Shown here piece after piece: positions 16,301-41,278 of a DNA stretch of 64,000 nt (the stretch's first letter is position 1; each line of letters opens with the position of its first letter). The notes beneath the pieces are model-generated. The model saw nothing but the letters and a program-made list of their open reading frames with translations. It searched no databases and had not been told where the DNA came from. The stretch comes from Candidatus Obscuribacteraceae bacterium (lineage in GTDB: Bacteria > Cyanobacteriota > Vampirovibrionia > Obscuribacterales > Obscuribacteraceae), in the NCBI GenBank assembly GCA_044226015.1, contig JBGAHS010000001.1, positions 1,248,001 through 1,312,000 on the forward strand, in the 5' to 3' direction. The position numbers and the translations under genes were made by a program.

Positions 16301-16382
16301 CTGTTGAATCTGATTGGATTTCAGAAGATCTGGAAAGAGAGTCGGCTTAAGTCACCAACAAAGTTTCTTAAGTTCAATGTCA

Positions 16383-18909: not shown

Positions 18910-18934
18910 TACTAGTCCTCCATATACCAATCTT

Positions 18935-21155: not shown

Positions 21156-21297
21156 TCAGCTGAAACTGTATGAGCAGGTACGCTACTGCTCACACAGCCA
21201 GCGCAATGGTGCATTTGTCATTTCTGAGCGTGAGGAGTCTCAATATTCTCCAATAAAGTTCGCCTTGCTCTACAAAATAGACAGGAGTCCAATATCT

Positions 21298-22156: not shown

Positions 22157-22307
22157 GGTCGGATTTGATTGGATTTTAGAGGTCTTTAATCACCATTTTT
22201 TTTTCGAAACTCCATTGCGGTTAGACTGGGTGACGAAACTGAACCACCAAATCCTATTCGAATTGAACCACCACTGGTAAGGGCACCATCACCGCTATCC
22301 CATTGCT

Positions 22308-22634
22308 TTAGTGACCGCCGAAGATTGCTTCATACCAAAATTTATTCTCATCTCTAAACCATGACTTGTTTTCGTCGGTACACAGACCAGACAGCGATTG
22401 CATTTCCGTTGAATAACGGAACATAAGTCCAATCAGGTTTCTCAGGCTGTCATCATCTAAGGTGTTTTCTTCTAACTGAAGTTCAACTTGATTGGGCACG
22501 CCCTGTAGCGGCTTTCCCGGAAGAACAGAAATCGATTTTACACCCCTAAGCTGCTTTAATCCGTGGAAAAAAAGCTCTTCGTCAAGTTGAGAGAACCACC
22601 TCAAGGGCTCAGGAACGCTAAGGACATAACTCAT
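22308..22634 (-). CDS. Putative immunity protein for the Ntox37-like toxin
   Basis: Starts 2 bp after the cassette 9 stop; FSQLDEELFF..LRNLIGLMFRY..NKSWF..FWYEAIF. Confidence 0.7.
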   Translation of the reverse strand: MSYVLSVPEPLRWFSQLDEELFFHGLKQLRGVKSISVLPGKPLQGVPNQVELQLEENTLDDDSLRNLIGLMFRYSTEMQSLSGLCTDENKSWFRDENKFWYEAIFGGH

Positions 22635-22636
22635 AA

Positions 22637-23683: not shown

Positions 23684-24108
23684 AGTGCGTGAGGACTTGA
23701 TCTCGCTGATGAAATGAGGTCAATGCACTAAGCAAAAGTCGGAACATGTGCCGTGCTGCAAAAGAAAAATGATCTGGTGCTAGCGGGTGCTTGACTGTTA
23801 TCTTGCAGGTTCCTTAGGTGTCTGATCACTTTTAATTCTTAATTCAGCTTAGTCTGCTGCTTTGCAGATACGCCTCAAACACAATTATTTTTTTTGCGCG
23901 TAGCCGCATCCTCGGTTCTTTCAGGTTGTCCTAACAAACCTTGTCTATTACTCTATTACTAGAGCATGGAAATCATTTCTTCCTCGTTCAGTCTATAGTT
24001 CTTTGATCCTTGCGTACGCAGACGCAATTCGACGACTTTTGAAACACGCATAGCATGCCTATAGTCAACAGTGATAAGCAAAAAATCTCTGAAGCTTTGC
24101 TACAAGAG
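23658..24108 (-). repeat. 451-bp inverted repeat, left copy
   Basis: Reads as the reverse complement of 31436-31886; no mismatch seen by eye. Confidence 0.92.
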
Positions 24109-24182
24109 CCAGGTCTTTTACTTCAGCTTGAGTCAAATTCTAGAGCTCTTCGATCAAGATCTGTATGTTTAATCGGTGCCAA
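24021..24182 (-). pseudogene. FimB/FimE-like recombinase 5' fragment (copy B)
   Basis: PIKHTDLDRRALE/LTQAEVKDLALVA/FRDFLLITVDYRHAMRVSKVVELR with frameshifts. Confidence 0.75.
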
Positions 24183-24367
24183 ATTTTTTAGCCGAAAATG
24201 GTGTTTGAAGAGATATGCGGTTTGAAATAGGCGAAAACAACGGTCAGATGGTTCAAAGTCAAAGATAGCTGAGAACAGTCCTTTTCGGCTATCTTTATGT
24301 AGAGACAGAGGTTAATGGCTCTAATCTTTGCAAAGAAATTCTTTCTATAGGGAGAAGGGTGACATTG

Positions 24368-24781
24368 TCATAAAGCCACTCTGATAAATACTTTCTGATT
24401 CATCCTATCAACCAATTCACATGCGGATTTGAGATCAGTAAGTATTGTCAGAACTGATTTGTCAGTATAGTTACGAGCTATTACAGGATCGTATTTCTTC
24501 CATTGCTTGACCAAACTTTTTAACTCTTCCTTACTAGCTCTCCATAGAAAGTTGACCACGTCGGCAGGTATTTGGTATAGCCAAACGGTCTCCGCAACCG
24601 AAGTGTATAAGATCGGAATTGCATCCTCGTCATACTTAGTGCGAGTTACGATGGATAACAGGCTAGCCACGTTCGCTGGCATTAAATCGGGGATCAGTAA
24701 TTCCCCTTCTTTCTCAGAAAAGCCAGGGTGCTCACACCTCCGCTTAGCAGAAGCAAGTGTTCCGACAAGTATGTGTGTCAT
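24368..24781 (-). CDS. Hypothetical protein, possibly an orphan immunity protein
   Basis: 137-aa ORF MTHILVG...KVFIRVAL; its ATG is back to back with the RHS ATG at 24783. Confidence 0.55.
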   Translation of the reverse strand: MTHILVGTLASAKRRCEHPGFSEKEGELLIPDLMPANVASLLSIVTRTKYDEDAIPILYTSVAETVWLYQIPADVVNFLWRASKEELKSLVKQWKKYDPVIARNYTDKSVLTILTDLKSACELVDRMNQKVFIRVAL

Positions 24782-24782
24782 A

Positions 24783-27700
24783 ATGCCCAAAATAGAAGAC
24801 CCAACCTTCGATACTGATGGTACAAAGTGGATCACCGCAGCCGCACTCAACTCTGAGACCGACGGCTATTTCATGATTCCGTCAGATCAAATGAGCGCTG
24901 CGTGGACTTTGCTTGATGCTGACCAGGCAAAAGCAATTTGGGGAAAGGGTTACGCTCTGCTTCCTCAACAATTCAAAACACCAAATTGCCCCAAATCACC
25001 TTGTACAACAGGCTGCAGTTGCCCAGTAAATGGGATGCCGAAAGCTTCAGCTTTTTCTATGAATGCCACACTCAATATTGTGGATACGCCGCTGTCTTAT
25101 TCGCCACCAATTGGTCCAGACATGGGCGTGGTCGTTAATTACAATTACAACGAAGCTGAGCAACCCTCAAATTTCACCTTCACAAATCTTGGGCATAACT
25201 GGAGCCTGAATTGGCTCTCTTATCTCACTATTGATAGCACTGACCCCATTCATCGAATAGTGAAAGTGAGAGTTAGAGGCGGCGGTTATGAGCAGTACAC
25301 CGAGCCATTTGGGAACAGAAATCCTTATTCTCTTGCGATTATTGCAGAAGTAAACAATGCAGGAGTAATAAGTTGGGAACGACGGATGCCTGACGGAAGC
25401 GTCGAAAAATACGAAAGAAAAAATGCTGCCGGAGACACCTTCTTTCTTACCCAGGTTGTTGACCCTCAGAACAACGCAGCCGTTCTGTCTTACTCATCCA
25501 ACACAGTTACAGATCCAGGCTATTTCCGCCTGGCTTCAATTACTGATGCCTGTGGCAACTCTCCGATGACGGTGACATACGATTCAAACAGTTCAACAGA
25601 CCCCGGCTATTACAAGGTTACCAGCGTTGCCGATGGCTTTGGCCGCTCTGCCAGCTTTGCATACAGCTCTGACAAAAGCCAATTGCTCAGCATTACCGAT
25701 GCGGTTGGAAACCAGTCAAAATTTTCCTATCAGACTGACACGGACTCAACCTTTATAAACCTTATGGTCACGCCCTACGGATCTACTGGATTCTATCGGT
25801 ACACACCAGCGGGTGCGACGGGAGCCGTGCCGGAAGGAATGACGTTCACACTACCAGATGGTTCAAGCACACGAATTGAAAATTGGTTGGGCGAACTCAA
25901 ATATACTTATTTTTGGGATAGAGAAGCCTCTGAGATGTATCCGGACGATGCATTCAACAATGTCTACACGCACTGTCAGACTACTCGCTGGCTGTACACA
26001 CCTAATTCCGTTCAGACATCTATCCCTAGTTGGACCAGAAAGCCACTGGAAGCACCCGTAAGCTATTACTTTCCGGGTCAGACTGGCTGGAACCAAATTT
26101 CTGGTGGATTTGTGCGTGTCCAGCAGATGTCGCAACAACTGGTTCCCATTAAGAACACGATAACTATTGGCGGAACAATTACCGCAGGAAATATCATCAA
26201 GGTAGAACTCGATGATCTTGGTCTCCCCGAGGGACTTACACAGGTTTCTTACACGGTTGTTGCGGGAGACACGACAAGCACAATAGCTGCGGGGTTGGTT
26301 CAGAGTATAAACAATTCGACGCCCTTGCAAGCCTTTGGAATCACCGCCACTTCCGTGGGCAACGTAGTGACAGTTAGTTCCCTTACACCAAATGACTTTG
26401 ATAGCAGCAAATTTGTTAATAAGTCAGGAGCGGTAACTGAGACTTTGACTTTTACCACTGGAACCAATCGAGTTCAGAACTTCACTTGTAGTGGAACCGC
26501 TACGGCGGGGCAAGTCTACGCGATAACAGTCACTGACTCCACCTTGCCTGGTGGTTCACAAACTATTAGCTACACCGTTCAAACTGGAGATAGCAACGCC
26601 GATATAGCTCAAGCGCTGTCACTTGGCGTAAATGCAAATGCAAACCTTCAAGCTTCGAAGATTTCGTCTGCATGGAGTAGTGCCTTCTATATTGGAGTTG
26701 GACAAACACCTTCAAGTACAGCCAACCCTGTGATTGGTGTTCAGACAAATTCAACCAGCAGCACCACGTATTCTGGCACCGTTAATGGTGCTGCAAGCGC
26801 TAACTTTAGCAGTGCAACCAGTGCTCATGGTCTAGTTAAGGCAAATTACAACCTCTACACTGACGTTGGCAATCCGAACCCTACTGCGATAATCGATCAA
26901 TTAGGAAGACGACTAGACATCACTTATGCGGCAAACGACATTGACGTAATCAAGGTCCTCGAAAATGCGGCGCTGCATTCAAGCCTGGTTGGCTATTGGA
27001 CGTATGGAACCGTTCCACATAAGCCGACCGCTGCCTACGATTCATCACTGCAGCACACTCTCTACACCTACCAGAGTAACGGCGAGCTGGCTACCGTAAC
27101 AGACCGAAACGGAGCCACCACAACCTACAATTACAACGCCAACAGTTATCTCAGCTCCATCGATGGACCATTAAGTGGCAACCAGGACGTGACTACATTC
27201 TCCTTCTACGGGTATGGTCTGCCAAGCTCAATCACAGACTCTGAAGGCTACACGCTCAACTTCTCTTACGACGGTTTGAACCGTTTAACCAGCACTGCGT
27301 TTCCTGATGGCACCACAGAAGACACCAGATATAATCGGCTCGATGCTGTAATGATGTCTGACCGTATTGGCCGGTGGACTCAGCGAACCTACGACAGCAT
27401 GCAGAATTTGGTCTCCGAGGTTGACCCGCTTGGACGACAAACGAAGTATTGTTGGTGCCATTGTGGTGGTCTGGCATCATTGACTGACCCTGCAGGCAAT
27501 ACCACAAAATGGCATCATGACCTGGAAGGTCGCGTTATTCAGAAGGAATACGCTGATGGTTCTCATTACGACTACGTCTATGAAACCACAAACAGCAGAA
27601 TCGCTTCAATTTCTGATGCCATTCAGCCGACTCCGCAAAGCACCATTTTCACCTACAACCTGAATGATTCTGTTGCCGTCAAGCGCTATGCCAATGCCGT

Positions 27701-30680
27701 GAACGCAACATCTCAAGTTGTGTCTGCATTCGACCCATACTTTGACCGTCCGCAATCGATTTCTAACGGCTGGGGACAATACAATTACAAATACTACCCT
27801 TATTACAAGGACGCGTTCTTCAACCCTGATAATGGCTGGACATCAATTGTTGTTGGCGGCATCCCCGAGGTGCCGAACGCGACAGACACCATCAGTATTG
27901 TCTTCTACAGCTCTAACCTCGCGGGAGGACAATATACTTTCAATTACACGGTTCCTGCCGGTGATGTTGGAAACACGAATCAGCTAGCAACGCATCTTTC
28001 AGCTGCTATCGATGCTGATACGACTTTGAACAATGCGGGAATCAATCCTAGCCTCAGCAGTAATTTTGTAATTCGAATTCACAACCAAACTGTGGACCTT
28101 CGGGTGGCACCGACGGCGACTGGCGGAACCATTGTCACCTGTGGCTCAGGCAAGCTGAGCGATGTCACTAACACTGTGATTTCTAACTCGCAAATTTCCT
28201 ACGGGTACGATGGCGAGGGCAGAACTCAAGCCAGGCTCATCAATGGAGGAAACAATCAATCCAGGTGGACCTTCGACGCGATGGGTCGAGTCACCACAGA
28301 GCTCAATCCATTAGGTACCTTCAACTATGCCTACATCGACAACACAGCGGGCTCTTCAAAGGGTGTAAATCGACTCGCCTCGATTACTTACCCGAACAGC
28401 CAGGTTACAAATTTCAGTTGGCTGCCGAACATCGGCGACCAGCGCTTACAACAAATTTCGAATCTAAGTCCGAGCGCGACTACCTTGTCGAAATTTGCCT
28501 ATGCCTACAATTCCGCCGGTGAAATCACGCAATGGCAGCAGCTGCAGAATAGCGTCAATACCCACCTCGGGCTGGCTTATGATAATGCTGGGCAGCTGAT
28601 TACAGCAGTTTCTGATTCGGGCACTCTGTTCAAAGCATACATAGCCGGAACGCCTCACGCAGGCGATGTCGTCTCAGTTACTGCCTATGATGCATCGCTG
28701 ACCGGCACGACGCCGGTTGGCCAAGAGACTGCATCTTATACAGTTGTCGGCGGTGACACATCGGCGACCATCGCCACAAATCTTGCTAGCGCAATTACTT
28801 CCGTGATGGGAACGAATCTGGGTCTGAGCGCATCAGCCAGCGGCAAAGTTATTTCCATAACTACATCAGCTACCCGTGCAACGCAATTCACTTCCGCGGT
28901 CAGCGGAGTTGGTGCCACGGATACCATCATCATGGACCGTGGTCAGCCAAGCGGCAACCGACACAGCCAGCTCTACTATGCCTATGATTGCGCAGGCAAT
29001 CGCACCGGGGTGCAAGGCGACAGCACTGGCAGCTTCGGAGCTGGCGGTCTGAACACAAACGCCACAGCCTATGGCTACAACAACCTGAACGAGCTAACAA
29101 ACTATGCTCCCGGTGGTCCAATCAGATTTGAAGGAAGCACCACGAACCCGATCATTTCTGCGGTGGCAAATGTCACGAAAACGGTCACCGTTACGGGCTC
29201 GGTTACTGCTGGCGACAAATTGACGGTTAGTGTCCATGACCCTGCCATCACAGCCGGAAAGGACATCACCTACACGGTTGTCGGAGGCAACACAACTACC
29301 GATATTGCGACTGGCTTGAAAAATCTAATCAATGCCGACTCTACCCTGTCTTCGCTAGGCATCACTGCCACTTCAAGTGCTAACGTCTTGACCATTACAT
29401 CGACTTCAGCCAACAAGACAATGTACTCGGCGAGCAAGAATACTGGAGCTAGCGAAACACTGACTCTCAACGCCTCAGCCTCGGACACTGCGCTAATCAG
29501 TCCTTCGACTGCATTCAGCTCAAACCCGAAGCTTGCATTGAGTTCGAATACTGTTAAGGTAACGGCTAAGAGTGGCGGCGGCACAGCGGCAACCAATTCG
29601 TATCCAATAAGCATCAACTCGGCGTCATCTGCGACACTGCAATACGACGCGAATGGCAATATGACGAGCGACGGAACAAACACCTACTCCTGGGATGCCG
29701 AAAATAGGCTGATTCAGATTACTTATCCGGGCTCGGGAAATAACACCCAATTTTCGTATGATGCACTTTCGCGCGCAACGAAAATCGAGGAGCGCACTGC
29801 TGGCAGTGTCACTTCGACGAAGCAACACCATTGGGCGGGACTGCAAAAACGTGAGGAGAGAGATGGAGCAGGAACTTTAACAAATGGCAAGCTTTTCTTT
29901 GCAGCTGGAGAAATTAGCTTCGTAAGCGGAGCAGCATCAAATTGCTTTTTCACGCAAGACCATTTGGGCTCAACCAGAGAGTTTACTAGCTCAATCGGAG
30001 GAACTTTTAGCGTTCAAGCTGTCTACGCCTATTCTCCCTATGGGAATGCCGTTAAAGTCGCTGGCAGCAATGACACCAATTTCCAATTCGCAGCGATGTA
30101 CACAAACTTGCGCTCTGGAGTTGTGCTCACTTTAAAGCGCGAATTTTCACCAACATTGGGGCGCTGGCTCAGCCGCGATCCCCTTGGCGAAATAGTATCC
30201 AATAATCTTTTTGATTATGCAGACAACAATCCGGTATTATTTGTTGATGTTTTGGGACTAGCACCGATTACCGGTCCCACCGTAATCGGTCCCGCTTGCC
30301 CCATAAAAGGAAGAGATCCTTGCGCAGATCTACTGGCAAGTATGGCAAGCCGAATTTCTCAAATAAACCATGAAGTTGAATTGATGTATTCGGACCCTGG
30401 AGACTTGTTCCATTTGGCTTATGCTACTCCTAATCCTGCGAAAACTGGACACCGATATACTTATTTCGGACACGCTATGGAAATTGAAAACTACCAAACC
30501 AGTCTTGGTAAAAGTTATAAAAAAGCTGTCGAGATGGGATGTTTAGGCATACCCACGTCTGAAGTAAAACGAGCGCTAAATGCGGAGATTCCTATGATGC
30601 CTGCGGGCGAAACTGAGCTTCACTTGTCTGGAAACGAACTGAAAGCAGTTATGAGAATGCTCAGTGGCGGAAAGAAATAA
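24783..30680 (+). CDS. Main RHS/YD-repeat protein, apparently 5'-truncated, with five inserted repeat domains and a C-terminal tip
   Basis: YD repeats, DHLGS, GRWLSRDP, DVLG. Begins at KIEDPTF..ETDGYF..IWGKG. The ORF part at 24507-24782 shadows the antisense gene. Confidence 0.9.
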   Translation: MPKIEDPTFDTDGTKWITAAALNSETDGYFMIPSDQMSAAWTLLDADQAKAIWGKGYALLPQQFKTPNCPKSPCTTGCSCPVNGMPKASAFSMNATLNIVDTPLSYSPPIGPDMGVVVNYNYNEAEQPSNFTFTNLGHNWSLNWLSYLTIDSTDPIHRIVKVRVRGGGYEQYTEPFGNRNPYSLAIIAEVNNAGVISWERRMPDGSVEKYERKNAAGDTFFLTQVVDPQNNAAVLSYSSNTVTDPGYFRLASITDACGNSPMTVTYDSNSSTDPGYYKVTSVADGFGRSASFAYSSDKSQLLSITDAVGNQSKFSYQTDTDSTFINLMVTPYGSTGFYRYTPAGATGAVPEGMTFTLPDGSSTRIENWLGELKYTYFWDREASEMYPDDAFNNVYTHCQTTRWLYTPNSVQTSIPSWTRKPLEAPVSYYFPGQTGWNQISGGFVRVQQMSQQLVPIKNTITIGGTITAGNIIKVELDDLGLPEGLTQVSYTVVAGDTTSTIAAGLVQSINNSTPLQAFGITATSVGNVVTVSSLTPNDFDSSKFVNKSGAVTETLTFTTGTNRVQNFTCSGTATAGQVYAITVTDSTLPGGSQTISYTVQTGDSNADIAQALSLGVNANANLQASKISSAWSSAFYIGVGQTPSSTANPVIGVQTNSTSSTTYSGTVNGAASANFSSATSAHGLVKANYNLYTDVGNPNPTAIIDQLGRRLDITYAANDIDVIKVLENAALHSSLVGYWTYGTVPHKPTAAYDSSLQHTLYTYQSNGELATVTDRNGATTTYNYNANSYLSSIDGPLSGNQDVTTFSFYGYGLPSSITDSEGYTLNFSYDGLNRLTSTAFPDGTTEDTRYNRLDAVMMSDRIGRWTQRTYDSMQNLVSEVDPLGRQTKYCWCHCGGLASLTDPAGNTTKWHHDLEGRVIQKEYADGSHYDYVYETTNSRIASISDAIQPTPQSTIFTYNLNDSVAVKRYANAVNATSQVVSAFDPYFDRPQSISNGWGQYNYKYYPYYKDAFFNPDNGWTSIVVGGIPEVPNATDTISIVFYSSNLAGGQYTFNYTVPAGDVGNTNQLATHLSAAIDADTTLNNAGINPSLSSNFVIRIHNQTVDLRVAPTATGGTIVTCGSGKLSDVTNTVISNSQISYGYDGEGRTQARLINGGNNQSRWTFDAMGRVTTELNPLGTFNYAYIDNTAGSSKGVNRLASITYPNSQVTNFSWLPNIGDQRLQQISNLSPSATTLSKFAYAYNSAGEITQWQQLQNSVNTHLGLAYDNAGQLITAVSDSGTLFKAYIAGTPHAGDVVSVTAYDASLTGTTPVGQETASYTVVGGDTSATIATNLASAITSVMGTNLGLSASASGKVISITTSATRATQFTSAVSGVGATDTIIMDRGQPSGNRHSQLYYAYDCAGNRTGVQGDSTGSFGAGGLNTNATAYGYNNLNELTNYAPGGPIRFEGSTTNPIISAVANVTKTVTVTGSVTAGDKLTVSVHDPAITAGKDITYTVVGGNTTTDIATGLKNLINADSTLSSLGITATSSANVLTITSTSANKTMYSASKNTGASETLTLNASASDTALISPSTAFSSNPKLALSSNTVKVTAKSGGGTAATNSYPISINSASSATLQYDANGNMTSDGTNTYSWDAENRLIQITYPGSGNNTQFSYDALSRATKIEERTAGSVTSTKQHHWAGLQKREERDGAGTLTNGKLFFAAGEISFVSGAASNCFFTQDHLGSTREFTSSIGGTFSVQAVYAYSPYGNAVKVAGSNDTNFQFAAMYTNLRSGVVLTLKREFSPTLGRWLSRDPLGEIVSNNLFDYADNNPVLFVDVLGLAPITGPTVIGPACPIKGRDPCADLLASMASRISQINHEVELMYSDPGDLFHLAYATPNPAKTGHRYTYFGHAMEIENYQTSLGKSYKKAVEMGCLGIPTSEVKRALNAEIPMMPAGETELHLSGNELKAVMRMLSGGKK
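29718..29763 (+). other. Expression-locus copy of the putative cassette recombination site
   Basis: Core CACCCAATTTTCGTATGA at 29744-29761 is identical in 11 orphan cassettes. Confidence 0.7.
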
Positions 30681-31317
30681 ATTGAAAGGACTCGAGGCAA
30701 CTATCGCTCAACTTTACGATTCCTTCGCAGAATATAGGCAAGGAAACATGAATTTGAGCAAGAGGCTCAAAAACATTAGCAACTCCGAAATATATCAGTA
30801 TGCCTCAGATGTGATAAATATTGCGGAGGTGGACGAATATCTGCATTACCTCCCGCGAATTTTGGAGTGTGCTACGGAATCTCAATGGCAGTTAGGGGAC
30901 ATCTTTCAAAATATCGGTATCTGTCTCCATTTTGGAACTGTAAGTTCTGAGCAAATTTCAACTTTGCGAGAATTCTTGCTGGAATGGTGGAGAATTCAAA
31001 TCCAGTCCCCTTGCACGATTACAACAATTTCTCCGATTGCTGAATTCTTGATAGACCTCAACCGAGGATTTGACGATTTAGAATGGCTTCTAGAGGTATG
31101 GACCGCTGAAAATAGCGATAACGCCTTTGCCAATCTTAGTGGAATGATCTATACCGCAGTGATGCATAAGGCATTATTTTCTGAGGAATTGAGCAGGCAA
31201 ATAACTCGATGGTTGAGTTGTGAATCTACTAGAAGTTGGATTGCTTTTGGAATGCAACAATACAGTGGACAGCCGTGGTGTAGCGAGTTAGTAGAAAATC
31301 TCAGCTACATCTCCTAA
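30664..31317 (+). CDS. Putative immunity protein of the main RHS tip
   Basis: Overlaps the RHS stop; helical protein with YLHYLPRILE. Confidence 0.7.
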   Translation: MAERNKLKGLEATIAQLYDSFAEYRQGNMNLSKRLKNISNSEIYQYASDVINIAEVDEYLHYLPRILECATESQWQLGDIFQNIGICLHFGTVSSEQISTLREFLLEWWRIQIQSPCTITTISPIAEFLIDLNRGFDDLEWLLEVWTAENSDNAFANLSGMIYTAVMHKALFSEELSRQITRWLSCESTRSWIAFGMQQYSGQPWCSELVENLSYIS

Positions 31318-31435: not shown

Positions 31436-31886
31436 CTCTTGTAGCAAAGCTTCAGAGATTTTTTGCTTATCACTGTTGACTATAGGCATGCTATGCGTGT
31501 TTCAAAAGTCGTCGAATTGCGTCTGCGTACGCAAGGATCAAAGAACTATAGACTGAACGAGGAAGAAATGATTTCCATGCTCTAGTAATAGAGTAATAGA
31601 CAAGGTTTGTTAGGACAACCTGAAAGAACCGAGGATGCGGCTACGCGCAAAAAAAATAATTGTGTTTGAGGCGTATCTGCAAAGCAGCAGACTAAGCTGA
31701 ATTAAGAATTAAAAGTGATCAGACACCTAAGGAACCTGCAAGATAACAGTCAAGCACCCGCTAGCACCAGATCATTTTTCTTTTGCAGCACGGCACATGT
31801 TCCGACTTTTGCTTAGTGCATTGACCTCATTTCATCAGCGAGATCAAGTCCTCACGCACTGGAAACATCACCCAATTTTCGTATGA
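31436..31886 (+). repeat. 451-bp inverted repeat, right copy; includes recombinase fragment copy C (31436-31523) and the cassette 11 site
   Basis: Reverse complement of 23658-24108. Identity ends exactly at the 3' end of the 18-bp core. Confidence 0.92.
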
Positions 31887-32787
31887 CGGCTTCGGAAAGT
31901 GCATCAAAATTGTAGAGACGACCGCCGGGTCCGTAACGAGTACTAAAAGCTTCGTCTTTCGGGGCAAGGGGAGGTGCGAAGCTCGTGATGCGTCCGGGAA
32001 CGTGACCGCTCAATTCTTTGCACTGGGACAGACGATAGGCGGCAGCTCCTGCTATTACACAGTCCGGCACGACGGCTCCAAGTGCGAGATGACGAACAGC
32101 ACCGGCACCATTGTCTGGCAGCAGAGCTTTGATCCTTATGGACTTCCGACGACAATAATCAACACCACCGCTGGTGACTTCGGTTATTGCGGTTACTACG
32201 TGCATAGTCGTTCAGGGCTGAATTTAACACGCACAAGGGCCTATAGTGCCAGCCTTGGCAGATTCATCAACCGTGATCCGATTGAGGAAGCCGGGGGCGT
32301 GAATCTTTATGCATACGTTGCAAATGACCCGGTGGAATGGTCAGATCCGTCCGGACATAACCCACTTGCAGGACTATTGGTGGGTCTCAGTCCGGAGGGT
32401 GCAGCAGCATTGGCTGGTGCGTTAACGGCGCTTGGAATTGCTGGGAACTGGCTGCAGAACAATGCCCAGCAGTTAGGCAAGAATATCGGCGATTTTATGA
32501 ATCAGATGGGTAAAAACCGCGCCGATAAAGACCAAGAGCGCGAGGAAAAGCGCGGCAAAGCGGCTAAGCCGAAAAAATGTGATCGAAAACCGAACTATCA
32601 GAATACGCCTCAAGGGCAACAAGCGCAGAACGCACAAGCGGAGGCAGCCAAGCAAGCTGCGGAACAGGCAACCGGGCAGGAAATGACACCTGATCAAGAG
32701 AGACAATTTCACGATAACATTAGTCATCAGGATCTCGGGTTCGAGGATCTGGTTGGTGAAGCGACGCGCATTCTAAACGGAAACTGA
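31861..32787 (+). CDS. Orphan RHS cassette 11; divergent core, helical tip
   Basis: GNITQFSYDGFGKCIKIVE..., RFINRDP, DPSG. Tip AQNAQ..DQERQFHDNIS. Confidence 0.85.
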   Translation, partial: GNITQFSYDGFGKCIKIVETTAGSVTSTKSFVFRGKGRCEARDASGNVTAQFFALGQTIGGSSCYYTVRHDGSKCEMTNSTGTIVWQQSFDPYGLPTTIINTTAGDFGYCGYYVHSRSGLNLTRTRAYSASLGRFINRDPIEEAGGVNLYAYVANDPVEWSDPSGHNPLAGLLVGLSPEGAAALAGALTALGIAGNWLQNNAQQLGKNIGDFMNQMGKNRADKDQEREEKRGKAAKPKKCDRKPNYQNTPQGQQAQNAQAEAAKQAAEQATGQEMTPDQERQFHDNISHQDLGFEDLVGEATRILNGN

Positions 32788-32788
32788 C

Positions 32789-33262
32789 ATGCCAAAAATC
32801 GGTCCAGAATATTACGGCGCAGTCAGCCTGCTTTTCATGAGCGAGAGTTCCGATCCTAGTGAAATCACTAAGTTACTAGGGACTGCTCCTACCGAAAGCT
32901 GGAGGAAGGGAGACCATCCAACTGGCAGCTTTAAGCGTAAGCAGTCGACCTGGCGATTGAAGAATCCAAAGGAAGACACCTACCGCCAATTAGAGAGCGA
33001 GATTATTTATTGGTTGGATTTTCTGCGTGATAGGCAGGAGCCCTTAACGCAGGCGAGGCTCCTCGGCTGGAGCTGCATCTTAGACTGCTTCATCTCAGCG
33101 CCAAGCACCATTACGCTGAACTTCACTGCCGATAAGTTGCGACTGTTAGCTGAGATCGGTGCCGATTTGTCAATCAACTGTTTTCGAACAACTCCAGAAC
33201 GATTTGAAAGGGGACTAAGGCAAAGTAAGCGATCTAGGCAAGTTGGTGGGAACAGTGATTAG
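32789..33262 (+). CDS. DUF4279-like immunity protein
   Basis: DPSEITKLLGTAPTESWRKGD..STWRL; starts 1 bp after the toxin stop. Confidence 0.7.
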   Translation: MPKIGPEYYGAVSLLFMSESSDPSEITKLLGTAPTESWRKGDHPTGSFKRKQSTWRLKNPKEDTYRQLESEIIYWLDFLRDRQEPLTQARLLGWSCILDCFISAPSTITLNFTADKLRLLAEIGADLSINCFRTTPERFERGLRQSKRSRQVGGNSD

Positions 33263-33422
33263 ATCTATAGCGATGGGCCGGGCCCGGCAACAATAGCCAG
33301 TTCTCATGGTCCTGAGAAGAAAAAGATTCGTTGTGCCGAGAAGGCGCTAGGATGTGTGCCTAGTAGACAAACTCGCGGCTGCGGCGACGATTGCTGCCGT
33401 TAAGGCTGGGAGGACGCGTGTC

Positions 33423-33700
33423 ATGGGTTGGTATTCTTTGGCAAAAATAACCTCAACTTTTCCCACCGAGGCGGACATGCCATTTCCCCGTCTGGTCGAG
33501 GAAGCGATTGTCCTTGTTGAGGCCGCCAATCTGCCTGAGGCGCACACAAAGCTCCAACACAACTGAGTTTAGCAGTCGGTGAGACGTTAGAGGTTGTGTA
33601 CATTTCGGATTGGGGAGGTAAACCATTTTTTGCCGCCACTTAGCTTGAATTCTTTCCGTTTCGCATGCTTCCCAGATGGGATGTATAAAGTGACGCACCA
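33423..33700 (+). pseudogene. Possible DUF4288-like remnant
   Basis: MGWY...VEEAIVLVEAANLPEAHTK followed by an early stop. Confidence 0.3.
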
Positions 33701-33883
33701 TTGCTTTTATCGCCGCTAAATGTTGTTTGTTCATCAAAGGGCTAATACCTCCAACTGACATTGACAATTTTCTTTGTTCACTTCTGAGTATCCGTCCGCC
33801 ACGGGACGTGGTTGTTAACCTCCGTGAAAATATGAGATCACTATTGTGTTAGTGATACTGAGTTTGTGATGATTGACAGTTTG

Positions 33884-35458
33884 CTAAGTGATGAAGCTCG
33901 TGGCTTTCTTCCAACGATCCGGAAGGAATTGATCAATCTCAGACAACTTTGTCTGATTGATCTTGGCGAAGACATCAGCCAAGTATTCAACGGGGTTCAA
34001 TCCATTCCGCTTTGCCGAGGCTATCAGTGTGAAGTGTATTGCAAGGGCTTTGGCTCCTGCTTCAGACCCCGCAAACAGGAAGTTCTTTCTAGACAAAACG
34101 AATTGTTTGATTTCGCGTTCCGAGGCATTGTTATCGACTTCGATCTCCGGATTTTTAAGAAAGCGCGTAAGAGCTCTCCAGTGATTCAAAGAATAGTTAG
34201 CAGCCTCGGCCAAAAGATGGCTGGGCGAAAACAATTTCTTGTTTTTAGAGTGAATGTGCCGAAGCTCTCTCATCAATGGCTTCGAGAATCTTCGGCGAAG
34301 CGCGAGTCTGGCATCCGGGCTCAGCTTCTTTCCCCGTTTCTCAATTTTGTAAATGCGCTCGTAAATGTCGAGCATCTTTCCCGCAATCTCCAATTCCATG
34401 ATTTGAGCGTTGAAGATTCTGCGCCTGGCGTGTGTGTTGCAGCCAGCTTCAGTGGCGCCATTACCGAGTTCATCCTTCTCGAACAGGGCATCGAAACCAC
34501 TGGCCGCATCAGCTTGAATGATGCCAAAGTAGCCTTTGAAGAAATCTTTGTTTACTTGGAAATTAAGTGACTTCGAATAGAGGAAAGCCACAAGCTTATG
34601 CGAGGTGTCGCCGCGGCACACAATCATTTTGCTTCTCCGAATCTTTTTCATGTTGCTGGGAGTTCGGTCTTGAACTTTGATTTGGGTTTCATCGGTTTGT
34701 ACTACTCTGGATTTCAGAATCTCGCGTTTGATCAATTCGTAGAGAGGTTCAACTGCCAGCGACAATGCGATGAACCAGTCGCACTGTGTAGAGCGAGGAA
34801 TCGGAATAGAATCCCGAGCAAACTTTTTCTCTTGTCTGAAGTTTGGCAAACCGTATTCAACCTTGTCGCTGACAATTTGCGCCAGAAGAGTAGGACCAGC
34901 GTAACTGCCAGGAATTGGCAGTTCGGGCTTATGGGCTTTACGAATATACTGTTTGCATTTTGGGCACGCTCTTGTTTCCTGCTGGTGCTCGATGTGCTTC
35001 AACGAACGAAGTATGGTTTCAAGTTCGTGGGTGACTTTGTTGCAAACGAATTTTGTTTCGACGTTACAGTTAGGGCAAATTCTCTCACTATCGGGAACCA
35101 GGTGCTGCGTGATTTCATCAACGGGAAGATCGGCCAACGCTGTGTCTCGAACCAGCTCGTCATCATTTCGTTGTCTACGGTCCGAAACTGTCGGCGCTGG
35201 TCTAGGATTTCTTCCTTCTGATTTGCTGCCGAATTGACTCCGATCTCTATTTTTCTTTTTTGCAATTAGCAAGTCTAGTTTCTCTTGGACCTGTGAAAGC
35301 TGGCGCAAGAGTTCTGCGTTGCCTTCGAGAGCAGTCTGCAGAGTTTTTTGCATCTCTGAAAGCTGTTTTTTTAGTAGCTCATTTTTTTCGCGCTCGGCTT
35401 GGAAGAGCTGTTTGAAGTCTGATTCGATTTCTGGTTCGGATTCTGGCAATGCGAGCAC
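33884..35458 (-). CDS. tnpC: IS66 transposase TnpC
   Basis: Coiled coil, FGSKSE, zinc finger, TDET, CNTHARR, DNNASEREIK. Confidence 0.95.
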   Translation of the reverse strand: MLALPESEPEIESDFKQLFQAEREKNELLKKQLSEMQKTLQTALEGNAELLRQLSQVQEKLDLLIAKKKNRDRSQFGSKSEGRNPRPAPTVSDRRQRNDDELVRDTALADLPVDEITQHLVPDSERICPNCNVETKFVCNKVTHELETILRSLKHIEHQQETRACPKCKQYIRKAHKPELPIPGSYAGPTLLAQIVSDKVEYGLPNFRQEKKFARDSIPIPRSTQCDWFIALSLAVEPLYELIKREILKSRVVQTDETQIKVQDRTPSNMKKIRRSKMIVCRGDTSHKLVAFLYSKSLNFQVNKDFFKGYFGIIQADAASGFDALFEKDELGNGATEAGCNTHARRRIFNAQIMELEIAGKMLDIYERIYKIEKRGKKLSPDARLALRRRFSKPLMRELRHIHSKNKKLFSPSHLLAEAANYSLNHWRALTRFLKNPEIEVDNNASEREIKQFVLSRKNFLFAGSEAGAKALAIHFTLIASAKRNGLNPVEYLADVFAKINQTKLSEIDQFLPDRWKKATSFIT

Positions 35459-35657
35459 CTTCGGCTGATTGCCTAATTATGATCCATGATGTATCTAAAG
35501 GACAGAGGAGGCAGCAATCAATTTGAGGAGATCAGCGAGATTTCATTTAGCCATCATATCTGGTGGCTAAAATATCGAGACGTTGCAATTCAGGTTCTGA
35601 TATCGTTATATTATGTTTCACTCCTCGTTTCGTCAAAAGCTTATGAATAGGCAATTT

Positions 35658-36074
35658 TCAGCGAGCCAGAGTTTTCACAAGTACTTTTGGGGTAGTCCCA
35701 GCCTTTCGATCCCGGTGAGGTTGGCGATATCGTTTTAGCCGTTTTACAGAGGCAGTGTCTATTCCTTCAAGAAGCATGATCAGATCCGCGCGCTCAATTT
35801 GAACTGGTTCGTACTCCCCATTGACGAACTTAACTTCTGGAAATTGGAAAGTTCCAGACTCAAGCCGCTTAGAATAAATAGCCCAGCCATCCAGGTCCCA
35901 CCACAATATCTTGATGAATTTGCTACGCCCTCCGTGAAAGATGAACAGGCTTCCGGAATATGGGTCTTCAGCGAAGTGATTGCGTGCAAGTTCAAGCAAC
36001 CCATCAAACGAACGCCTCATGTCGGCTGGTTTTGTGCAAACAAAAATGCGAGTGGCTGGAGTAAGTTGAAACAC
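35658..36074 (-). CDS. tnpB: IS66 accessory protein TnpB
   Basis: PADMRRSFDGL..KILWWDLDGW..KRLESG. Confidence 0.93.
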   Translation of the reverse strand: MFQLTPATRIFVCTKPADMRRSFDGLLELARNHFAEDPYSGSLFIFHGGRSKFIKILWWDLDGWAIYSKRLESGTFQFPEVKFVNGEYEPVQIERADLIMLLEGIDTASVKRLKRYRQPHRDRKAGTTPKVLVKTLAR

Positions 36075-36089
36075 TTTGAATTCTCCGTT

Positions 36090-36665
36090 CTATTTATGCT
36101 CGACAGGTTTGCTGTTACGTAATCCGTTAATTAGTCGCACGATTAGATCCACTGATGCGGTATTGCTACAAGAAATGCATGTGCCATCGATTAGTGTTAC
36201 TAGAATCGTTTCGTCGAGAGACTTTACTGGTTCCGAAGACGGTGGGGAGTTACCCGATATCTCCACTGGAATGAAGGCTGGGGGCTGAACTGCTTGCCCA
36301 GTTTGCGCCGGTCTTCGTCCGAGCTTGGTCTGCCAGTAGTGCAAGGAACCACTGGTAATCCCATGCTCTTTGCAGAAATCCCTAATGCTGCCACGATATT
36401 GCTCCAAGTCAGAAAAGATTTGAGTCCAATATTTGGTTCGGGATTTAAGTTGTGAGGGGCGGTTCTCCCCGATGCTTATTTCTGATTCGAGTCCTTTTTC
36501 TTCATCGCGCCTGCGGAGTTCTGCTCGCCAAAATTGAAATGTATTTGGCGATATGTTTTCAATTGCGCAAAACTTTTTGAATGGCAGTTGGCTCGCTTGA
36601 AATTTCTTCAATATCTCGCGCCAGTATCGCTCCCTTTCGGGATCCACCCTTCGTTTCTTTCTCAT
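36090..36665 (-). CDS. tnpA: IS66 TnpA with two HTH-like repeats
   Basis: FCAIENISPNTFQFW and FCKEHGITSGSLHYW, then FIPVE. Confidence 0.85.
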   Translation of the reverse strand: MRKKRRVDPERERYWREILKKFQASQLPFKKFCAIENISPNTFQFWRAELRRRDEEKGLESEISIGENRPSQLKSRTKYWTQIFSDLEQYRGSIRDFCKEHGITSGSLHYWQTKLGRRPAQTGQAVQPPAFIPVEISGNSPPSSEPVKSLDETILVTLIDGTCISCSNTASVDLIVRLINGLRNSKPVEHK

Positions 36666-36846
36666 CCCATTCCTTAACCAAACCAGAATCGCACGATTCC
36701 TGAACCGGCTTCGATTCTTTGCTAATGCTTGTTTGTTCCGACAACAGTCAATCACTTCGGTACTCTTGTCGCGAACTTCTTTATCAAATCATTTTTGCGC
36801 AGATGCCTCTACCACGCTCCACCTCGGACGGATACACTTCTGAAGC

Positions 36847-36877
36847 AAAGATAGCCGAAAAGGATTCGGCTATCTTT
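36847..36877. promoter_or_regulatory. 13-bp perfect hairpin upstream of the recombinase fragment
   Basis: AAAGATAGCCGAA-AAGGA-TTCGGCTATCTTT; a degenerate copy lies at 24261-24296. Confidence 0.55.
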
Positions 36878-36964
36878 TCCTTTGCACTGGTGTTTTCGCA
36901 TATTTCAAACCGCATATCTCTCCAAACACCATTTCGGCTAAGCTGAAATGGAAAATCGAGAAAT

Positions 36965-37163
36965 TTGCCACCGATGAAACAAAAAAACCTTGATCGAAGA
37001 GCTCTAGGAAGCTGAGGTAAAAGACCAGGCACTTGCAGCAATGAAACTTGGACGACAAGGCTTCAGAAATGTTTTGCTTATCACCGTTGCCTACCGACAT
37101 GCCATGCGTGTTTCCGAGGTTGCCGAATTGCGTCCTTCTCACCCGGCGGTTTGGCGTGAATAA
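36965..37163 (+). pseudogene. FimB/FimE-like recombinase 5' fragment (copy D, best preserved)
   Basis: EVKDQALAAMKLGRQGFRNVLLITVAYRHAMRVSEVAELRPS matches box I of catalytic-domain-only tyrosine recombinases. Confidence 0.8.
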
Positions 37164-37198
37164 CTTCTTACTGCGCTGAAATCAAGACTTCTCCCACC

Positions 37199-38167
37199 GG
37201 AAACATCACCCAATTTTCGTATGATGCACTTTCGCGCGCCACGAAAATCGAGGAGCGCACTGCTGGCAGTGTCACTTCGACGAAGCAACATGTATGGTGT
37301 CGCTCTGAAAGAGTAGAGGAGAGAGACGCAACAGGGTCCTTGAGCACCGGAAAGCAATTCTTGGCTCTGGGACAAAGAAACTTCGTGAGTGGAGTTGGAA
37401 GTAACTACTTCTACACTTTGGATGCTTCACCCGGAAATGTAAGAGAAATGATTGACGCCGCTGGCAGCGTGATTGCGCAGTATAGCTATGATCCCTACGG
37501 AGTCAAAACAAAGATCCAAGGCTCCGGAGACTCAGATTTTCAATACGCCGGATATTACCTGAATTCAAGATCGGCTTTATACGCAACGGCCACACGATTT
37601 TACAATGCGAACGGAGCTAAGTTCATCAATCGAGATTCGATTGGCGAAAACGGCGGTGTAAACCTTTATGGGTACGTGGACAATAACCCAATTTCATCTA
37701 AAGACTCCAGCGGGATGGGCACAATAGCCATGCGGGTGCCACCGCTAATGATTCCTCGTCCCATGCCAGTTCCTAGGTCAAAACCACAAGAACCTCCAGC
37801 ACCAACAAATCCTCATCCAGGTAAGCACAATAACAGCGGGGACGACGAGGACAAAGACAAGGACGACGACAAAGGTGATTGCGATGACGGAGGAGGCGGC
37901 GGCGGTGGTGGTGGCGGCGGTGGTGAGCCAGGAGAGGGCAATCCAGGGTCTTCTGATGATGACGACGTTGTTCGAAAATGTATCTTAAGACAGATCGCCA
38001 AAGCTGCCGGTCAGAGAACCATCGTAAAAATGGTTTACCCCAATAACAAGGGACAACGATGGAACGATGTTAATCAAAATAAGGCTTTTTCGAAAATTGA
38101 TTACAAGCTTCAGGTAAACATTGGGCTATGTCTTCGTGGAATTAACCCTGACGCATTAGGGCAATGA
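37199..38167 (+). CDS. Orphan RHS cassette 12; Pro/Asp/poly-Gly linker plus tip
   Basis: In frame from the site; KFINRDS, DSSG. Confidence 0.85.
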   Translation, partial: GNITQFSYDALSRATKIEERTAGSVTSTKQHVWCRSERVEERDATGSLSTGKQFLALGQRNFVSGVGSNYFYTLDASPGNVREMIDAAGSVIAQYSYDPYGVKTKIQGSGDSDFQYAGYYLNSRSALYATATRFYNANGAKFINRDSIGENGGVNLYGYVDNNPISSKDSSGMGTIAMRVPPLMIPRPMPVPRSKPQEPPAPTNPHPGKHNNSGDDEDKDKDDDKGDCDDGGGGGGGGGGGGEPGEGNPGSSDDDDVVRKCILRQIAKAAGQRTIVKMVYPNNKGQRWNDVNQNKAFSKIDYKLQVNIGLCLRGINPDALGQ

Positions 38168-38839
38168 ACTCTGTTCCGTCAATAGTGGGGTTATTCTAAA
38201 TTCCCATGCTCTCGATGCTTCGTCCGAACCAATGGAAAAGTCAACAAGGTCAACCTCATCACCGTATTTTCTAATTGCGGCAAGAGCCTCTTCTATGTTC
38301 GTTCTAGGAATGAAGTATCGAATTGTGGAAGCTCCAATCAAACAGCTCTCTGCATCCAGCACCAAATCTATCGTGCTTTCATTTGCTTCGCCTTTTACTT
38401 GTTCAAGTGTAGAACCGCACGGACTCATCACGTTTATCATTGAATACAGCTTGAGTAAGGAGCTATCTTCGTTTAGATATGGCGCGAGAAGCAATCGAGG
38501 AATTAATTCTGCTGCACCGCAGTGAACTCTTGCGTAGGATAGTGCTTGGTCAATTGGAACCATCACTTCTTCGACAGGGGTCCACAAGTGGCACCGCCCA
38601 TCTGCAAAGGATAGTTCCATAGCGCGCAAGTATTCTTTCTTTGTAGGACCTCGATACTCTTCATCAGAACTCTCCATTTTGAAGGAGATGCGATTTAGTT
38701 CTCTTTGAAAATTAATGACGTACTTGCTTTTTGTTTCTAGTCCTGCATGAAAGGAATGAACCAATCCTGATTCTTTGAATCTAAAAAAGGACGCGTAGTT
38801 CTTGACCAAGCTGTCGAAGATACCTTCTCTTAAGTGCAT
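38156..38839 (-). CDS. Hypothetical protein convergent with cassette 12
   Basis: 227 aa; 3' ends overlap by 12 bp; paralog of 16780-17274. Confidence 0.65.
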   Translation of the reverse strand: MHLREGIFDSLVKNYASFFRFKESGLVHSFHAGLETKSKYVINFQRELNRISFKMESSDEEYRGPTKKEYLRAMELSFADGRCHLWTPVEEVMVPIDQALSYARVHCGAAELIPRLLLAPYLNEDSSLLKLYSMINVMSPCGSTLEQVKGEANESTIDLVLDAESCLIGASTIRYFIPRTNIEEALAAIRKYGDEVDLVDFSIGSDEASRAWEFRITPLLTEQSSLP

Positions 38840-39386
38840 GTTGTTTCACCGATTTCTGTAAGAAGTACATCGTCTGCGACCTTCAAACGACTCTTGTCTT
38901 TGGTTGAGCGTGTTGGCACTCTCTTGCATGCTTGTGTTATGCCCCGCATTCAATTTAGTTGAACGCTTGACTCGGGTGGAACTTATTTTGAGAGACTCAC
39001 CTGGCTCAAAAAGGCAAGGATAAAGCAATATTTTTGATCTTGTTTCTCTGGATCTGTTGACGCATGTTTGCCTGCGTGTGCTCTTCCGGCTATGCCCCTG
39101 TTGAGAGCTCTGTTCTCAGGCAACTACTATTGGGTAGTGTGTAAAAAGTAAAAGACTGCATGAAGACAAACAATTGTCCAAGTCTGCATTAGTGGGATAT
39201 GATTCAACTTTGACGCTCAGGTGATAAACATGTTTAAGATCAGGCGCTGGCAGTATTGGTGAGGGAGGACATGTTAATGTAAGTGTTCTGCTTACTCGAA
39301 GTCGGCAAAAAATCGTTGCGCCGAGTGATTGCACCGAGGAGGAAAAAGTCAAATTCAAAAGGCTGTAGATTCGATTACGCAATCAA

Positions 39387-39660
39387 TCAAGCAACAGGTT
39401 CTTGATGAAATTTACTCACTTCATCCTCAATAATATCCTCGGACTGCTCTAAGCGGCGGCTTAGCATTGCGACTTCCGCATTCAATCGCTTGATCTTTTT
39501 CGCTTCAGCACTCTCCTTCGGTCCACGCTTTCTCGGCTCCAGGGACCTCTGTGCTCGATCAGCTCGCCGCTTCTGCAAAGTGGCAGCGTAAGTTTTGGAG
39601 AGCGCGGAAAAGCTCAACCATCTCCTGTGTTGCTCCAAGATGCAACGGCATTCGAATTTC
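39387..39660 (-). mobile_element. IS3-family OrfA-like remnant
   Basis: LEPRKRGPK..KIKRLNAEVAMLSRRLEQSEDIIE coiled coil; degraded. Confidence 0.5.
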
Positions 39661-39830
39661 CTTTCTAAGCTTTAGAAGATTCTCCTTGAGTCTGGCTAAT
39701 GGCGTCTCAAGTTTCTTACAGCCAAAATCGCAAAACGGAATTTAAAGAGCCTCAATTAATCGTCTAAAGAACTTCAGAATACTCTAGCCCAGAGTATTTA
39801 ACAACCTCTGAAATCCATTCAAATTGCACC

Positions 39831-40817
39831 GGGAAAAACACCCAATTTTCGTATGATGCACTTTCGCGCGCCACGAAAATCGAAGAGCGCGCTGCTGGCA
39901 GTGTCACTTCGACGAAGCAACATGTATGGTGTGGAACGGCTAGATGTGAAGAAAGAGATGCGTCGGGAAGCTTGAGCAATGGCAAGCAATTCTTCTCAAC
40001 AGGACAAGCTAACTTAAGTGGTGGCACTCCGACAAAGTTCTATTACAACCGAGACCACCTCGGCTCCATACGGGAGCTAACTGATTCAACTGGAGCCATT
40101 AAGACAAGATACTCTTTTGACCCTTATGGTCAGGTTGCAGAGACATTTGTGGCAGGCAGCATCTCGGCTGACATGCAGTATGATGGGTATTATGTGCATG
40201 GAAGAAGTGGACTCAATATGCCGGTCTACAGGGCTTATAATGCTGCTCTTGGTAGATTCTTCAATAGAGATCCCATCGACGAAAAAGGCGGTTTGAACTT
40301 GTTTGCTTACACGCTGAGCAACCCTGTAGGATTTACAGACCCTTTGGGATTGGAATGCCCAAAAGGACCACTAGTAGACGCTATCGTCAAAAAATTCGAA
40401 ATGGCTAAAGCCTTGCAAAAGAAAACGTCCATGGGCGGACTTGAAACTGGTGGCATAGGTGTATGGAACAATGGCAAGTTTACTACCTTTAAATGGGGAA
40501 CACCAACAACCTCATCGTCTTTCATCCTGGATACGTTTCCCGGCATGACTGATGTAATTCAAAATCATTTAAAAGTGCCTCCTTTGACTGATGCTGATTT
40601 AGAGAACAACCCTTCCATGACCGCAATGGAAGATGTTCAAAAGTCCGTTGATAATTCGAGCCGTTTGTGGACATTAGGATCTGATGGCGATATTACGATG
40701 TACAATGGAACCACTCATACGGGACAATGTACTGTACAAACTTGTATTTACGATAGTGCAGGTAATTTTAAACGCGAGTGCAAAGCCGATTGCACTAAAA
40801 TGGGCAGTGCTCATTAG
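39831..40817 (+). CDS. Orphan RHS cassette 13; possible JAB/MPN-like tip
   Basis: DHLGS, RFFNRDP, DPLG. Tip ETGG..IQNH..PS...ED is a degenerate JAB pattern. Confidence 0.82.
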   Translation, partial: GKNTQFSYDALSRATKIEERAAGSVTSTKQHVWCGTARCEERDASGSLSNGKQFFSTGQANLSGGTPTKFYYNRDHLGSIRELTDSTGAIKTRYSFDPYGQVAETFVAGSISADMQYDGYYVHGRSGLNMPVYRAYNAALGRFFNRDPIDEKGGLNLFAYTLSNPVGFTDPLGLECPKGPLVDAIVKKFEMAKALQKKTSMGGLETGGIGVWNNGKFTTFKWGTPTTSSSFILDTFPGMTDVIQNHLKVPPLTDADLENNPSMTAMEDVQKSVDNSSRLWTLGSDGDITMYNGTTHTGQCTVQTCIYDSAGNFKRECKADCTKMGSAH

Positions 40818-41278
40818 ATTTGTCCGTCGTGAATAATCTCGATGCCCTTTATCCAATCATGTTTTCCTATAATTAGGACGCGCCTAAAGCCCAGCCTTTT
40901 CAGAAAATCAAGAATGCTTTCTTGATTCTGATTAAATAACTCCAGGGCAAAATTTACTTCGACAACAATGATGTTTCTCGAAGAAGAATTGTTTTCTATC
41001 AATTCAAGAATTTGCTGTCTGCGATAACAATTTACACTGTTGCCATTTTTCATAGGTCCTAGAGGGGTGCTGTTACCTAGTAATTCCCTATAGCAATCAA
41101 TTCCAAAAAAGCTAAAGCGGCGGTCTGCTACCGCTTGAACTCTAACCACCTCTTTTATTGATTTTTTGTCTTTGTGATAACCAACAGTAATTAAACTCTC
41201 TGGGCGAGAGGCAATTGCACTGTTTGGAAAAATAAATTGAGATATACAGTAGAACAATAAAATTACAAGCAATTTCAT
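40814..41278 (-). CDS. Exported protein convergent with cassette 13
   Basis: Signal peptide MKLLVILLFY..AIA; stop codons overlap by 4 bp. Confidence 0.6.
   Translation of the reverse strand: MKLLVILLFYCISQFIFPNSAIASRPESLITVGYHKDKKSIKEVVRVQAVADRRFSFFGIDCYRELLGNSTPLGPMKNGNSVNCYRRQQILELIENNSSSRNIIVVEVNFALELFNQNQESILDFLKRLGFRRVLIIGKHDWIKGIEIIHDGQI

Follow-up and report, generated by a model that had tools for sequence, protein, structure and literature searches.

The window, that is, the whole stretch of 64,000 nucleotides analysed here (C11:1248001-1312000), comes from the genome of a Candidatus Obscuribacteraceae bacterium (G000; 8.19 Mb in 13 contigs, 92% complete), and the database relatives of the recombinases of this genome bear the names Candidatus Obscuribacterales or Melainabacteria. 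An rhs gene and a series of orphan Rhs tips occupy the first 41 kb of the window, the tips of the left array lying on the minus strand and those of the right array on the plus strand (Table 1). The rhs gene lacks the first ~320 residues, hydrophobic leader included, of the protein encoded in a second array on the same contig (array 2). Site starts in the left array are found at 1393, 5610, 13352, 14960, 18378, 19948, 22150 and 23677, with a decayed site near 16290 and five further sites beyond the left edge of the window. Three neighbouring tyrosine recombinase genes, which we take to be an RIT-like element, are inserted in the left array (7144-10420, minus strand), and a related set is present on C7 near 267.6-270.2 kb; the same array carries a reverse transcriptase fragment (PF00078) with a 363-aa ORF (2354-4079, minus strand). 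Elsewhere in the window rpoC is split in two, and upstream of rpoB there are a 16-bp tandem repeat and a 107-108-bp repeat of four to five copies (50881-51083; 52438-52962).

Table 1. Features of the rhs locus, in window positions
Feature	Position	Strand	Remarks
Left cassette array	1..23677	-	holds Ntox37 tip and Imm53 gene
Stub A	5681..5779	-	70 bp from site 5591-5610
451-bp repeat, left copy	23658..24108	-	part of stub B, 343-bp tail, site 23658-23677
Stub B	24021..24295	-	intact 11-6-11 palindrome 24265-24292
Cut ORF upstream of stub B	24371..24850	-	left-array cassette remnant
rhs, 2057-aa frame	24507..30680	+	array-2 homology only from 24788; acceptor site 29742-29761
Deletion joint	24788..24790		central block (~4.6 kb in X2 and array 2) absent here
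Candidate immunity gene of attached tip	30664..31317	+	candidate by position
451-bp repeat, right copy, inverted	31436..31886	+	stub C 31436-31523, tail, site 31867-31886
Right cassette array	31867..41278	+	sites 31867, 37205, 39837
IS66 element	33788..36835	-	stops ~11 bp before stub D palindrome
Stub D	36847..37134	+	frameshifted 5′ third of FimB/FimE-like gene, ending at ELR
Stub D, damaged palindrome	36847-36877
Stub D, half-site in N-terminal codons	36932-36941
Cassette end between stub D and site	37135..37204	+	70 bp; contains partly conserved left arm
Cassette crossover site	37205..37224	+	conserved core and right part, in rhs codons NNTQFSYD
Orphan Rhs tip	37205..38167	+	open 320 codons from site
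ORF after tip, candidate immunity gene	38156..38839	-	candidate by position only; no Pfam match

The cassette site pattern occurs 24 times on C11, three times with rhs sequence upstream and 21 times at the head of an orphan tip. All 21 orphans, distributed over two arrays, start at one base within NNTQFSYD, which bears out an earlier sequence-only reading of this DNA in which the array was said to rest on a fixed crossover site, and 19 of them stay open for 283-346 codons. Identity between orphan and rhs sequences is 2-4 of every ten bases from -60 to -11, rises to 6 of 10 across the ten bases immediately before the start, and is 9-10 of 10 over the first 30 bases past it. The left arms follow a loose 30-bp consensus, which is common to most cassettes (those of stubs A and D included) and missing at the site that adjoins the integrase of array 2. 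Tips in both C11 arrays diverge, pointing away from the rhs 5′ end, a layout of the kind that repeated inversion would maintain. The arrangement has the sequence features expected of a shufflon-like multiple inversion system: a repeated site stands inside the gene and before in-frame alternative C-termini, in both orientations. An integron-type attC hairpin at the cassette ends was considered and rejected: of the cassette sites one was folded, along with the rhs site, and z values of -0.3 and -0.9 were obtained for the site at 37205.

Three tips (18378, 37205 and C11:1247621) are 93-96% alike over their first ~720 nt, the tip at 37205 being 93-94% alike to the other two and the one at 18378 being frameshifted, and pieces of rhs (residues ~1470-1560) are found upstream of sites in both arrays (5780-5818; C11:100698-100836). 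More rhs cassette arrays lie at contig ends (C13:99700-105008, C3:1-5200, C3:410000-421271 and C5:263500-274600), and the cassettes of C13 and of the start of C3 have a common start point and are possibly two halves of one divergent array. In this third array (C13/C3) six cassettes begin at the point used by the C11 orphans and have an altered right part; no PF00589 gene is present on its contigs, which run into assembly gaps. At C2:20581-30146 there is a third long rhs gene, which has related accessory genes and behind which lies a 200-aa tyrosine recombinase belonging to a different subfamily. The exact cassette site was found in none of the metagenome contigs, and matches with two mismatches in 7 of 103 family genomes, with at most four in each.

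Four stubs, A to D, lie among these cassettes; they had been described as copies of a repeat that encodes the box I region of FimB/FimE-type recombinases. A blastn search with copy D against the whole genome recovers the other three: A (85% over 152 nt, E 3e-41), B (70% over 244 nt, E 5e-33) and C (82% over 79 nt, E 1e-15). The open piece of D (37011-37160) matches positions 9-46 of PF00589 at E 5e-4, although below the cut-off of that model, and matches NF007371 at E 2e-5, so that the assignment to FimB/FimE-like box I stands. NF007370 and NF007371 are what we take to be the FimB/FimE models, their source label being only tyrosine-type DNA invertase. Each of the four copies runs in the direction of a cassette and stops at one 10-mer encoding ELR, as the first description had it. 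The peptide quoted there is a composite: every copy has frameshifts, stops or deletions, and none reads through. Proximity to a site, put at ~75 bp, holds for A and D, which stop 70 bp before it, whereas B and C stop 343 bp before. B and D reach further 5′ than was first stated, to a palindrome and N-terminal codons, and A, which follows an exact 39-bp copy (5780-5818) of rhs 29063-29101, does not begin until ALAAM. Copy C is not independent, since it lies inside a 451-bp inverted and 100% identical copy of the B tail; both copies of this repeat coincide with contig ends in run X1, from which the window may have been derived, and a contig of run X2 passes the B copy unbroken, which points to a recent duplication. 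Run X2 is a 2016 sludge metagenome from a separate study, available as contigs only. In one of its contigs, position 24790 is joined to a further ~925 nt that end in a cassette start, so that stub B is part of a cassette tail, the cassette being an ordinary one of the left array.

Searched with a DNA profile made from 42 intact relatives, the genome gives six matches, namely A to D and two extra relics at other rhs loci, E (C4:23398-23591) and F (C11:102485-102591), the latter at the right end of the second rhs array. Each of the six relics has an rhs core no more than 9 kb away; the zone so defined makes up 3% of the genome, and the relics are spread over three loci. Of the catalytic set R-K-HxxR-H-Y the stubs keep only the box-I Arg, and a C-terminal profile search found no C-terminal half of the recombinase in either array or at C4. 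Two derivations of the stubs were set aside. An internal deletion in which A and D retain the last recombinase codons does not suit a tail that is also present on stubless cassettes, and the C-terminal profile led only to the RIT recombinases; a split gene with its other half elsewhere found no match in the genome. The suggestion that an intact copy may lie elsewhere finds no support for the stub family, of which no close gene is found among 19 PF00589 matches in this genome (92% complete, with gaps at other rhs arrays), but a different intact recombinase that plausibly serves the array is present. A protein search with the 41-aa stub gave no match at E 0.01, a result of little weight.

Intact relatives of the stubs are genes of 190-250 aa that are 45-60% alike to stub D and have PF00589 as their single domain. 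The nearest one with genomic context is at locus L136, and the nearest overall is P0125, which has no context and to which stubs B to E are 67-76% alike over the best-aligned piece. The stubs are the remains of the 5′ part of a gene for a FimB/FimE-like tyrosine recombinase of ~210 aa. The intact relatives score 130-164 bits against NF007370 and NF007371, whose cut-offs are 221-222, and because these scores fall below the cut-offs the family is FimB/FimE-like only and not a member of the curated invertase models.

Upstream of its genes the family has a palindrome whose arms of 11 bp are separated by a 6-bp spacer, and the first codons contain a third half-site. A matrix derived from 18 sites with spacer 6, and so leaning to that spacer, places the palindrome upstream of 21 of the 42 intact genes at spacer 6 and of 0-6 of the 42 at other spacers. 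In this genome its top two matches are relics E and B, and the fourth is F. Geometry and position together suggest that the 28-bp palindrome is the FimB-like enzyme's own target. The cassette site does not fit as a family site at any spacer of 4-12 bp, its left arm scoring -34 bits (stub D) and -28 bits (rhs) at the 6-bp spacer. L136 has two family sites around one cargo gene and has no rhs; this stretch (L136:7308-9135), in which a FimB-like gene is accompanied by two 28-bp palindromes flanking a 312-aa cargo ORF, resembles a small cassette-capture unit. At L034 the intact gene might be read as the resolvase of an adjacent transposon, which is less likely given that the family site lies past the transposon's far end; the arrangement looks as if the transposon had been inserted between the family site and the gene.

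Linkage of the stub family to rhs was assessed for 42 of the best 51 matches, with up to ~9 kb on each flank and many contigs shorter than this; nine rows were left out as short contigs or near-duplicates. An rhs core lies within 9 kb of 11 of the 42 intact relatives, so that the outcome named beforehand as telling against the first description, full-length homologs without any linkage to rhs loci, is not what is seen. None of the 42 intact genes has a co-oriented core starting within 800 nt downstream, two of them having less than 800 nt of downstream sequence. By these two counts the FimB-like family associates with rhs loci yet does not precede orphan tips; where family genes are linked to rhs they are mostly located behind a tip and its immunity gene. 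Two cassettes that have no stub carry ends 79-80% alike to the 70-bp tail of D, and the nearness of D to the site is thus the nearness to it of an ordinary cassette end. Stub relatives are nevertheless commoner near rhs than a random passenger would be (6/6 relics, 11/42 relatives).

The intact recombinase linked to the cassettes is of a different kind. Array 2 encodes a 372-aa tyrosine recombinase (C11:89522-90640, minus strand) that ends 46 bp before the innermost left site; two accessory genes and a full rhs run divergently from it. It keeps all the catalytic motifs (R, K, HxxR, H and Y). Neither PF13356 within it nor a remnant upstream of it was found that would represent an arm-binding domain, and the four closest database proteins (P0002-P0005, 54-59% alike) are likewise without an arm domain.

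In X2 such an integrase adjoins the window's own rhs. A contig of 8957 nt (depth 11.6) carries window rhs 24788-29092 and then runs for ~4650 nt to an oppositely oriented site, the matching rhs-to-site distance in array 2 being 4631 nt. Compared with array 2, the 8957-nt contig contains the site together with the complete integrase, showing 48 differences over 1578 nt without a gap, and the genes in between at ~80%; the rhs-bearing and integrase-bearing contigs were equated through their same length and depth and their consistent coordinates. Between the two arrays (L002:1449-3026 against X2) the integrase is thus 97% alike and the genes alongside are ~80% alike, which suggests recent copying between loci. 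Because the X2 contig joins the window rhs to integrase and site, the window array once had this arm-less integrase at its centre, and a central block consisting of the site, the integrase, two accessory genes and the rhs 5′ end has been deleted in G000. The linked intact recombinase is accordingly seen at array 2 in G000 and at the window rhs in X2, and is gone from the first array of G000.

One difference between the strains falls at a site. Upstream of the site at 23677, X2 is nearly identical to the window, and past it there are 10 differences in 45 bases, from which it appears that a different cassette is joined there in X2; this is the sole strain-to-strain change noted at a site, and it is seen in contigs only. 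At 90% likeness X2 gives no cover of 22164-23491 and 30132-33451, though a hole alone proves nothing.

The reading that we consider probable is that the stubs are passenger relics in cassette tails and that a separate, arm-less integrase swaps the Rhs tips by inversion. The integrase would recombine the site inside rhs with any oppositely oriented site on the left, flipping the segment between them, so that a new tip with its immunity gene would be joined to rhs and cassettes would shift from one side to the other. The stubs probably go back to a single ancestral event that truncated a FimB-like gene lying in a cassette tail, the product being copied afterwards along with the tails. The first array of G000, now without its rhs 5′ end, would be mainly a reservoir of tips and immunity genes. 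The enzyme itself is likely to be derived from the arm-binding integrases of tip-swapping elements in related genomes, elements that probably enter rhs at a fixed codon and push out the tip already there; without its arm domain it would have lost directionality.

Homologs of the integrase are present in 10 of 20 rhs-centred loci. A second set was composed of 40 loci from the top of the similarity ranking, loci taken earlier being left out; in these best 40 loci, 28 of 43 integrase-homolog matches have rhs within 9 kb and 7 of 43 have an orphan start less than 800 nt downstream. When G000's own integrase and the rhs-centred loci are included, 18 of 63 integrase rows have an orphan within 1500 nt downstream. 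Tandem units of tip, immunity gene and integrase are found at L040 and L042, and the relatives that were scanned or listed mostly have PF13356. Among 69 distinct cores in the relatives, 40 have rhs upstream, 23 start sharply at QITYPG and six are of other kinds, three of these six resembling the G000 start. The QITYPG start, seen in 23 of the 29 orphan-like cores, lies eight codons before the G000 start point; with this differing start in the relatives, only two loci, both from one species, link the integrase to the G000 site. In quick trees, the second of which was computed without five long rows, the integrases that precede orphans form three supported groups, and one group of 10 rows has no rhs link. 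The G000 integrase is a long branch of unsure placement, and its union with a clade of 14 rows is neither recovered nor rejected (p-AU 0.275); it has a C-terminal motif in common with exactly this 14-row clade, which is linked to rhs. The genomes of the relatives are kin and not independent. At L046 (1217-1528 and 10703-11710; genome G013) another simple tyrosine recombinase is found twice with its end some hundreds of bases ahead of orphan rhs pieces. The chances are slightly in favour of the wider proposal, in which integrase-driven tip swapping would be lineage-wide, mobile units with an arm-binding integrase entering rhs at a fixed codon and supplying it with a new toxin-immunity pair, and in which an arm-less descendant would have been domesticated in this species, between two divergent arrays, as an inversion switch over about twenty tips.

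A reading that can hold together with this best explanation concerns the FimB-like enzyme, which might be a second system tied to rhs, moving cargo in and out at its own 28-bp site behind immunity genes. Family sites do stand right behind rhs-immunity pairs at L034, L059, L063, L064, L075, L081 and L134, and likewise at relics B, E and F; a second family site occurs within ~5 kb at L055, L060, L061, L062, L063, L069, L075, L081 and L136, and the left arm of relic F is changed, as expected of a hybrid site. This is a tentative reading to which we give somewhat less than an even chance, for 31 of the 42 intact genes lack an rhs in the surrounding 9 kb, relatives on viral contigs are near rhs in 0 of 10 cases, 361 kb of rhs-centred loci yielded just three sites, and both kinds of gene favour islands.

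The common start points might instead be fossils of integrations by arm-bearing tip-swapping elements, the tips now being exchanged by RecA-type recombination between cores after one old inversion. Homologous exchange is the published model in the parts of PMC2935791 and PMC3967940 that bear on it, and several observations agree with it: relatives have tandem integrase-plus-tip units (L040, L042 and also L047), the cassettes have ~160 bp in common at 80-90%, and the left cassette at 13352 carries 171 bp of rhs upstream of its site. It is nonetheless an unlikely account of arrays that are both divergent on C11 with an intact arm-less integrase at the centre, of a strain difference at 23677 that begins no more than five bases from the site, and of tips that mostly remain in frame.

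That the stubs derive from the cognate shuffling enzyme, as the sequence-only reading proposed, with cassettes that formerly ended in a FimB-like gene and then the site, is improbable: all four stubs share the orientation of a cassette, A and D come to 70 bp from a site, all six relics are at rhs loci and the right part of the site has six bases in common with the family arm, but the geometry of the family site is a misfit, the right arm alone matches 1.2% of C11 positions, the six common bases are altered in the third array, no intact gene of the 42 stands before an orphan, the 70-bp tail of D is shared with stubless cassettes, and in X2 the central place of the array is taken by a different, arm-less integrase.

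The R64 shufflon (Rci, sfx, PilV) is alike in having alternative C-termini behind a fixed site within the gene and inversion as the likely switch, and its sfx sites, as characterized in portions of PMC11852207, likewise have a conserved core and right arm and a variable left arm. It differs in its cargo, which here is a toxin tip with its immunity gene (16 + 5 orphan tips), and in its layout, the constant part and the enzyme being placed here between two divergent arrays; the enzyme here is akin to arm-binding integrases. The FimB/FimE invertases resemble the stub family in size (~200 aa), in the single PF00589 domain and in being the invertase models that are its best NCBIfam matches; the family differs in scoring below the cut-offs, in having its own 11-6-11 palindrome over the gene's 5′ end and no fim switch, and, in the case of the stubs, in the loss of most catalytic residues.

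Rhs C-terminal displacement, as outlined in parts of Jackson 2009 (PMC2935791) and Koskiniemi 2014 (PMC3967940), shares with the present locus a full rhs followed by orphan tips and immunity genes, and differs from it in that a fixed start point and an integrase abutting the site are found here; displacement is there attributed to homologous recombination, with no integrase known to accompany Rhs in the relevant part of PMC2935791. Integrase-like genes near rhs arrays have been proposed to help tip capture in Snodgrassella and Gilliamella (PMC5727410), the available portion of which describes no site or crossover point. The Bacteroidales rAID (PMC12247911, in part) likewise have a tyrosine recombinase beside a cassette array and conserved intergenic motifs, but in the passages concerned they consist of co-oriented orphan immunity genes only, whereas the site here is within the toxin reading frame. 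Recombinases also adjoin polyimmunity loci in sections of PMC3482391, the arm domain and the mobility of integrases are treated in sections of PMC8138268, and further related literature includes portions of bioRxiv 10.64898/2026.07.13.738213. A search of titles and abstract openings, mostly of non-subscription literature, found no published defined site with an integrase for Rhs tips.

The system around the stubs is a well-supported candidate for site-specific toxin-tip switching. The return of an orphan tip to a full rhs is usually ascribed to homologous recombination, and here a defined site and a candidate enzyme are at hand, together with a natural deletion of the integrase block, which makes site-specific tip switching testable with one gene. 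The stubs matter chiefly as a pointer to a FimB-like family that is common and whose 28-bp site can be predicted. If the proposal is true, an integrase would have become a shufflon enzyme by loss of its arm domain, and the array would provide a new recombinase-site pair.
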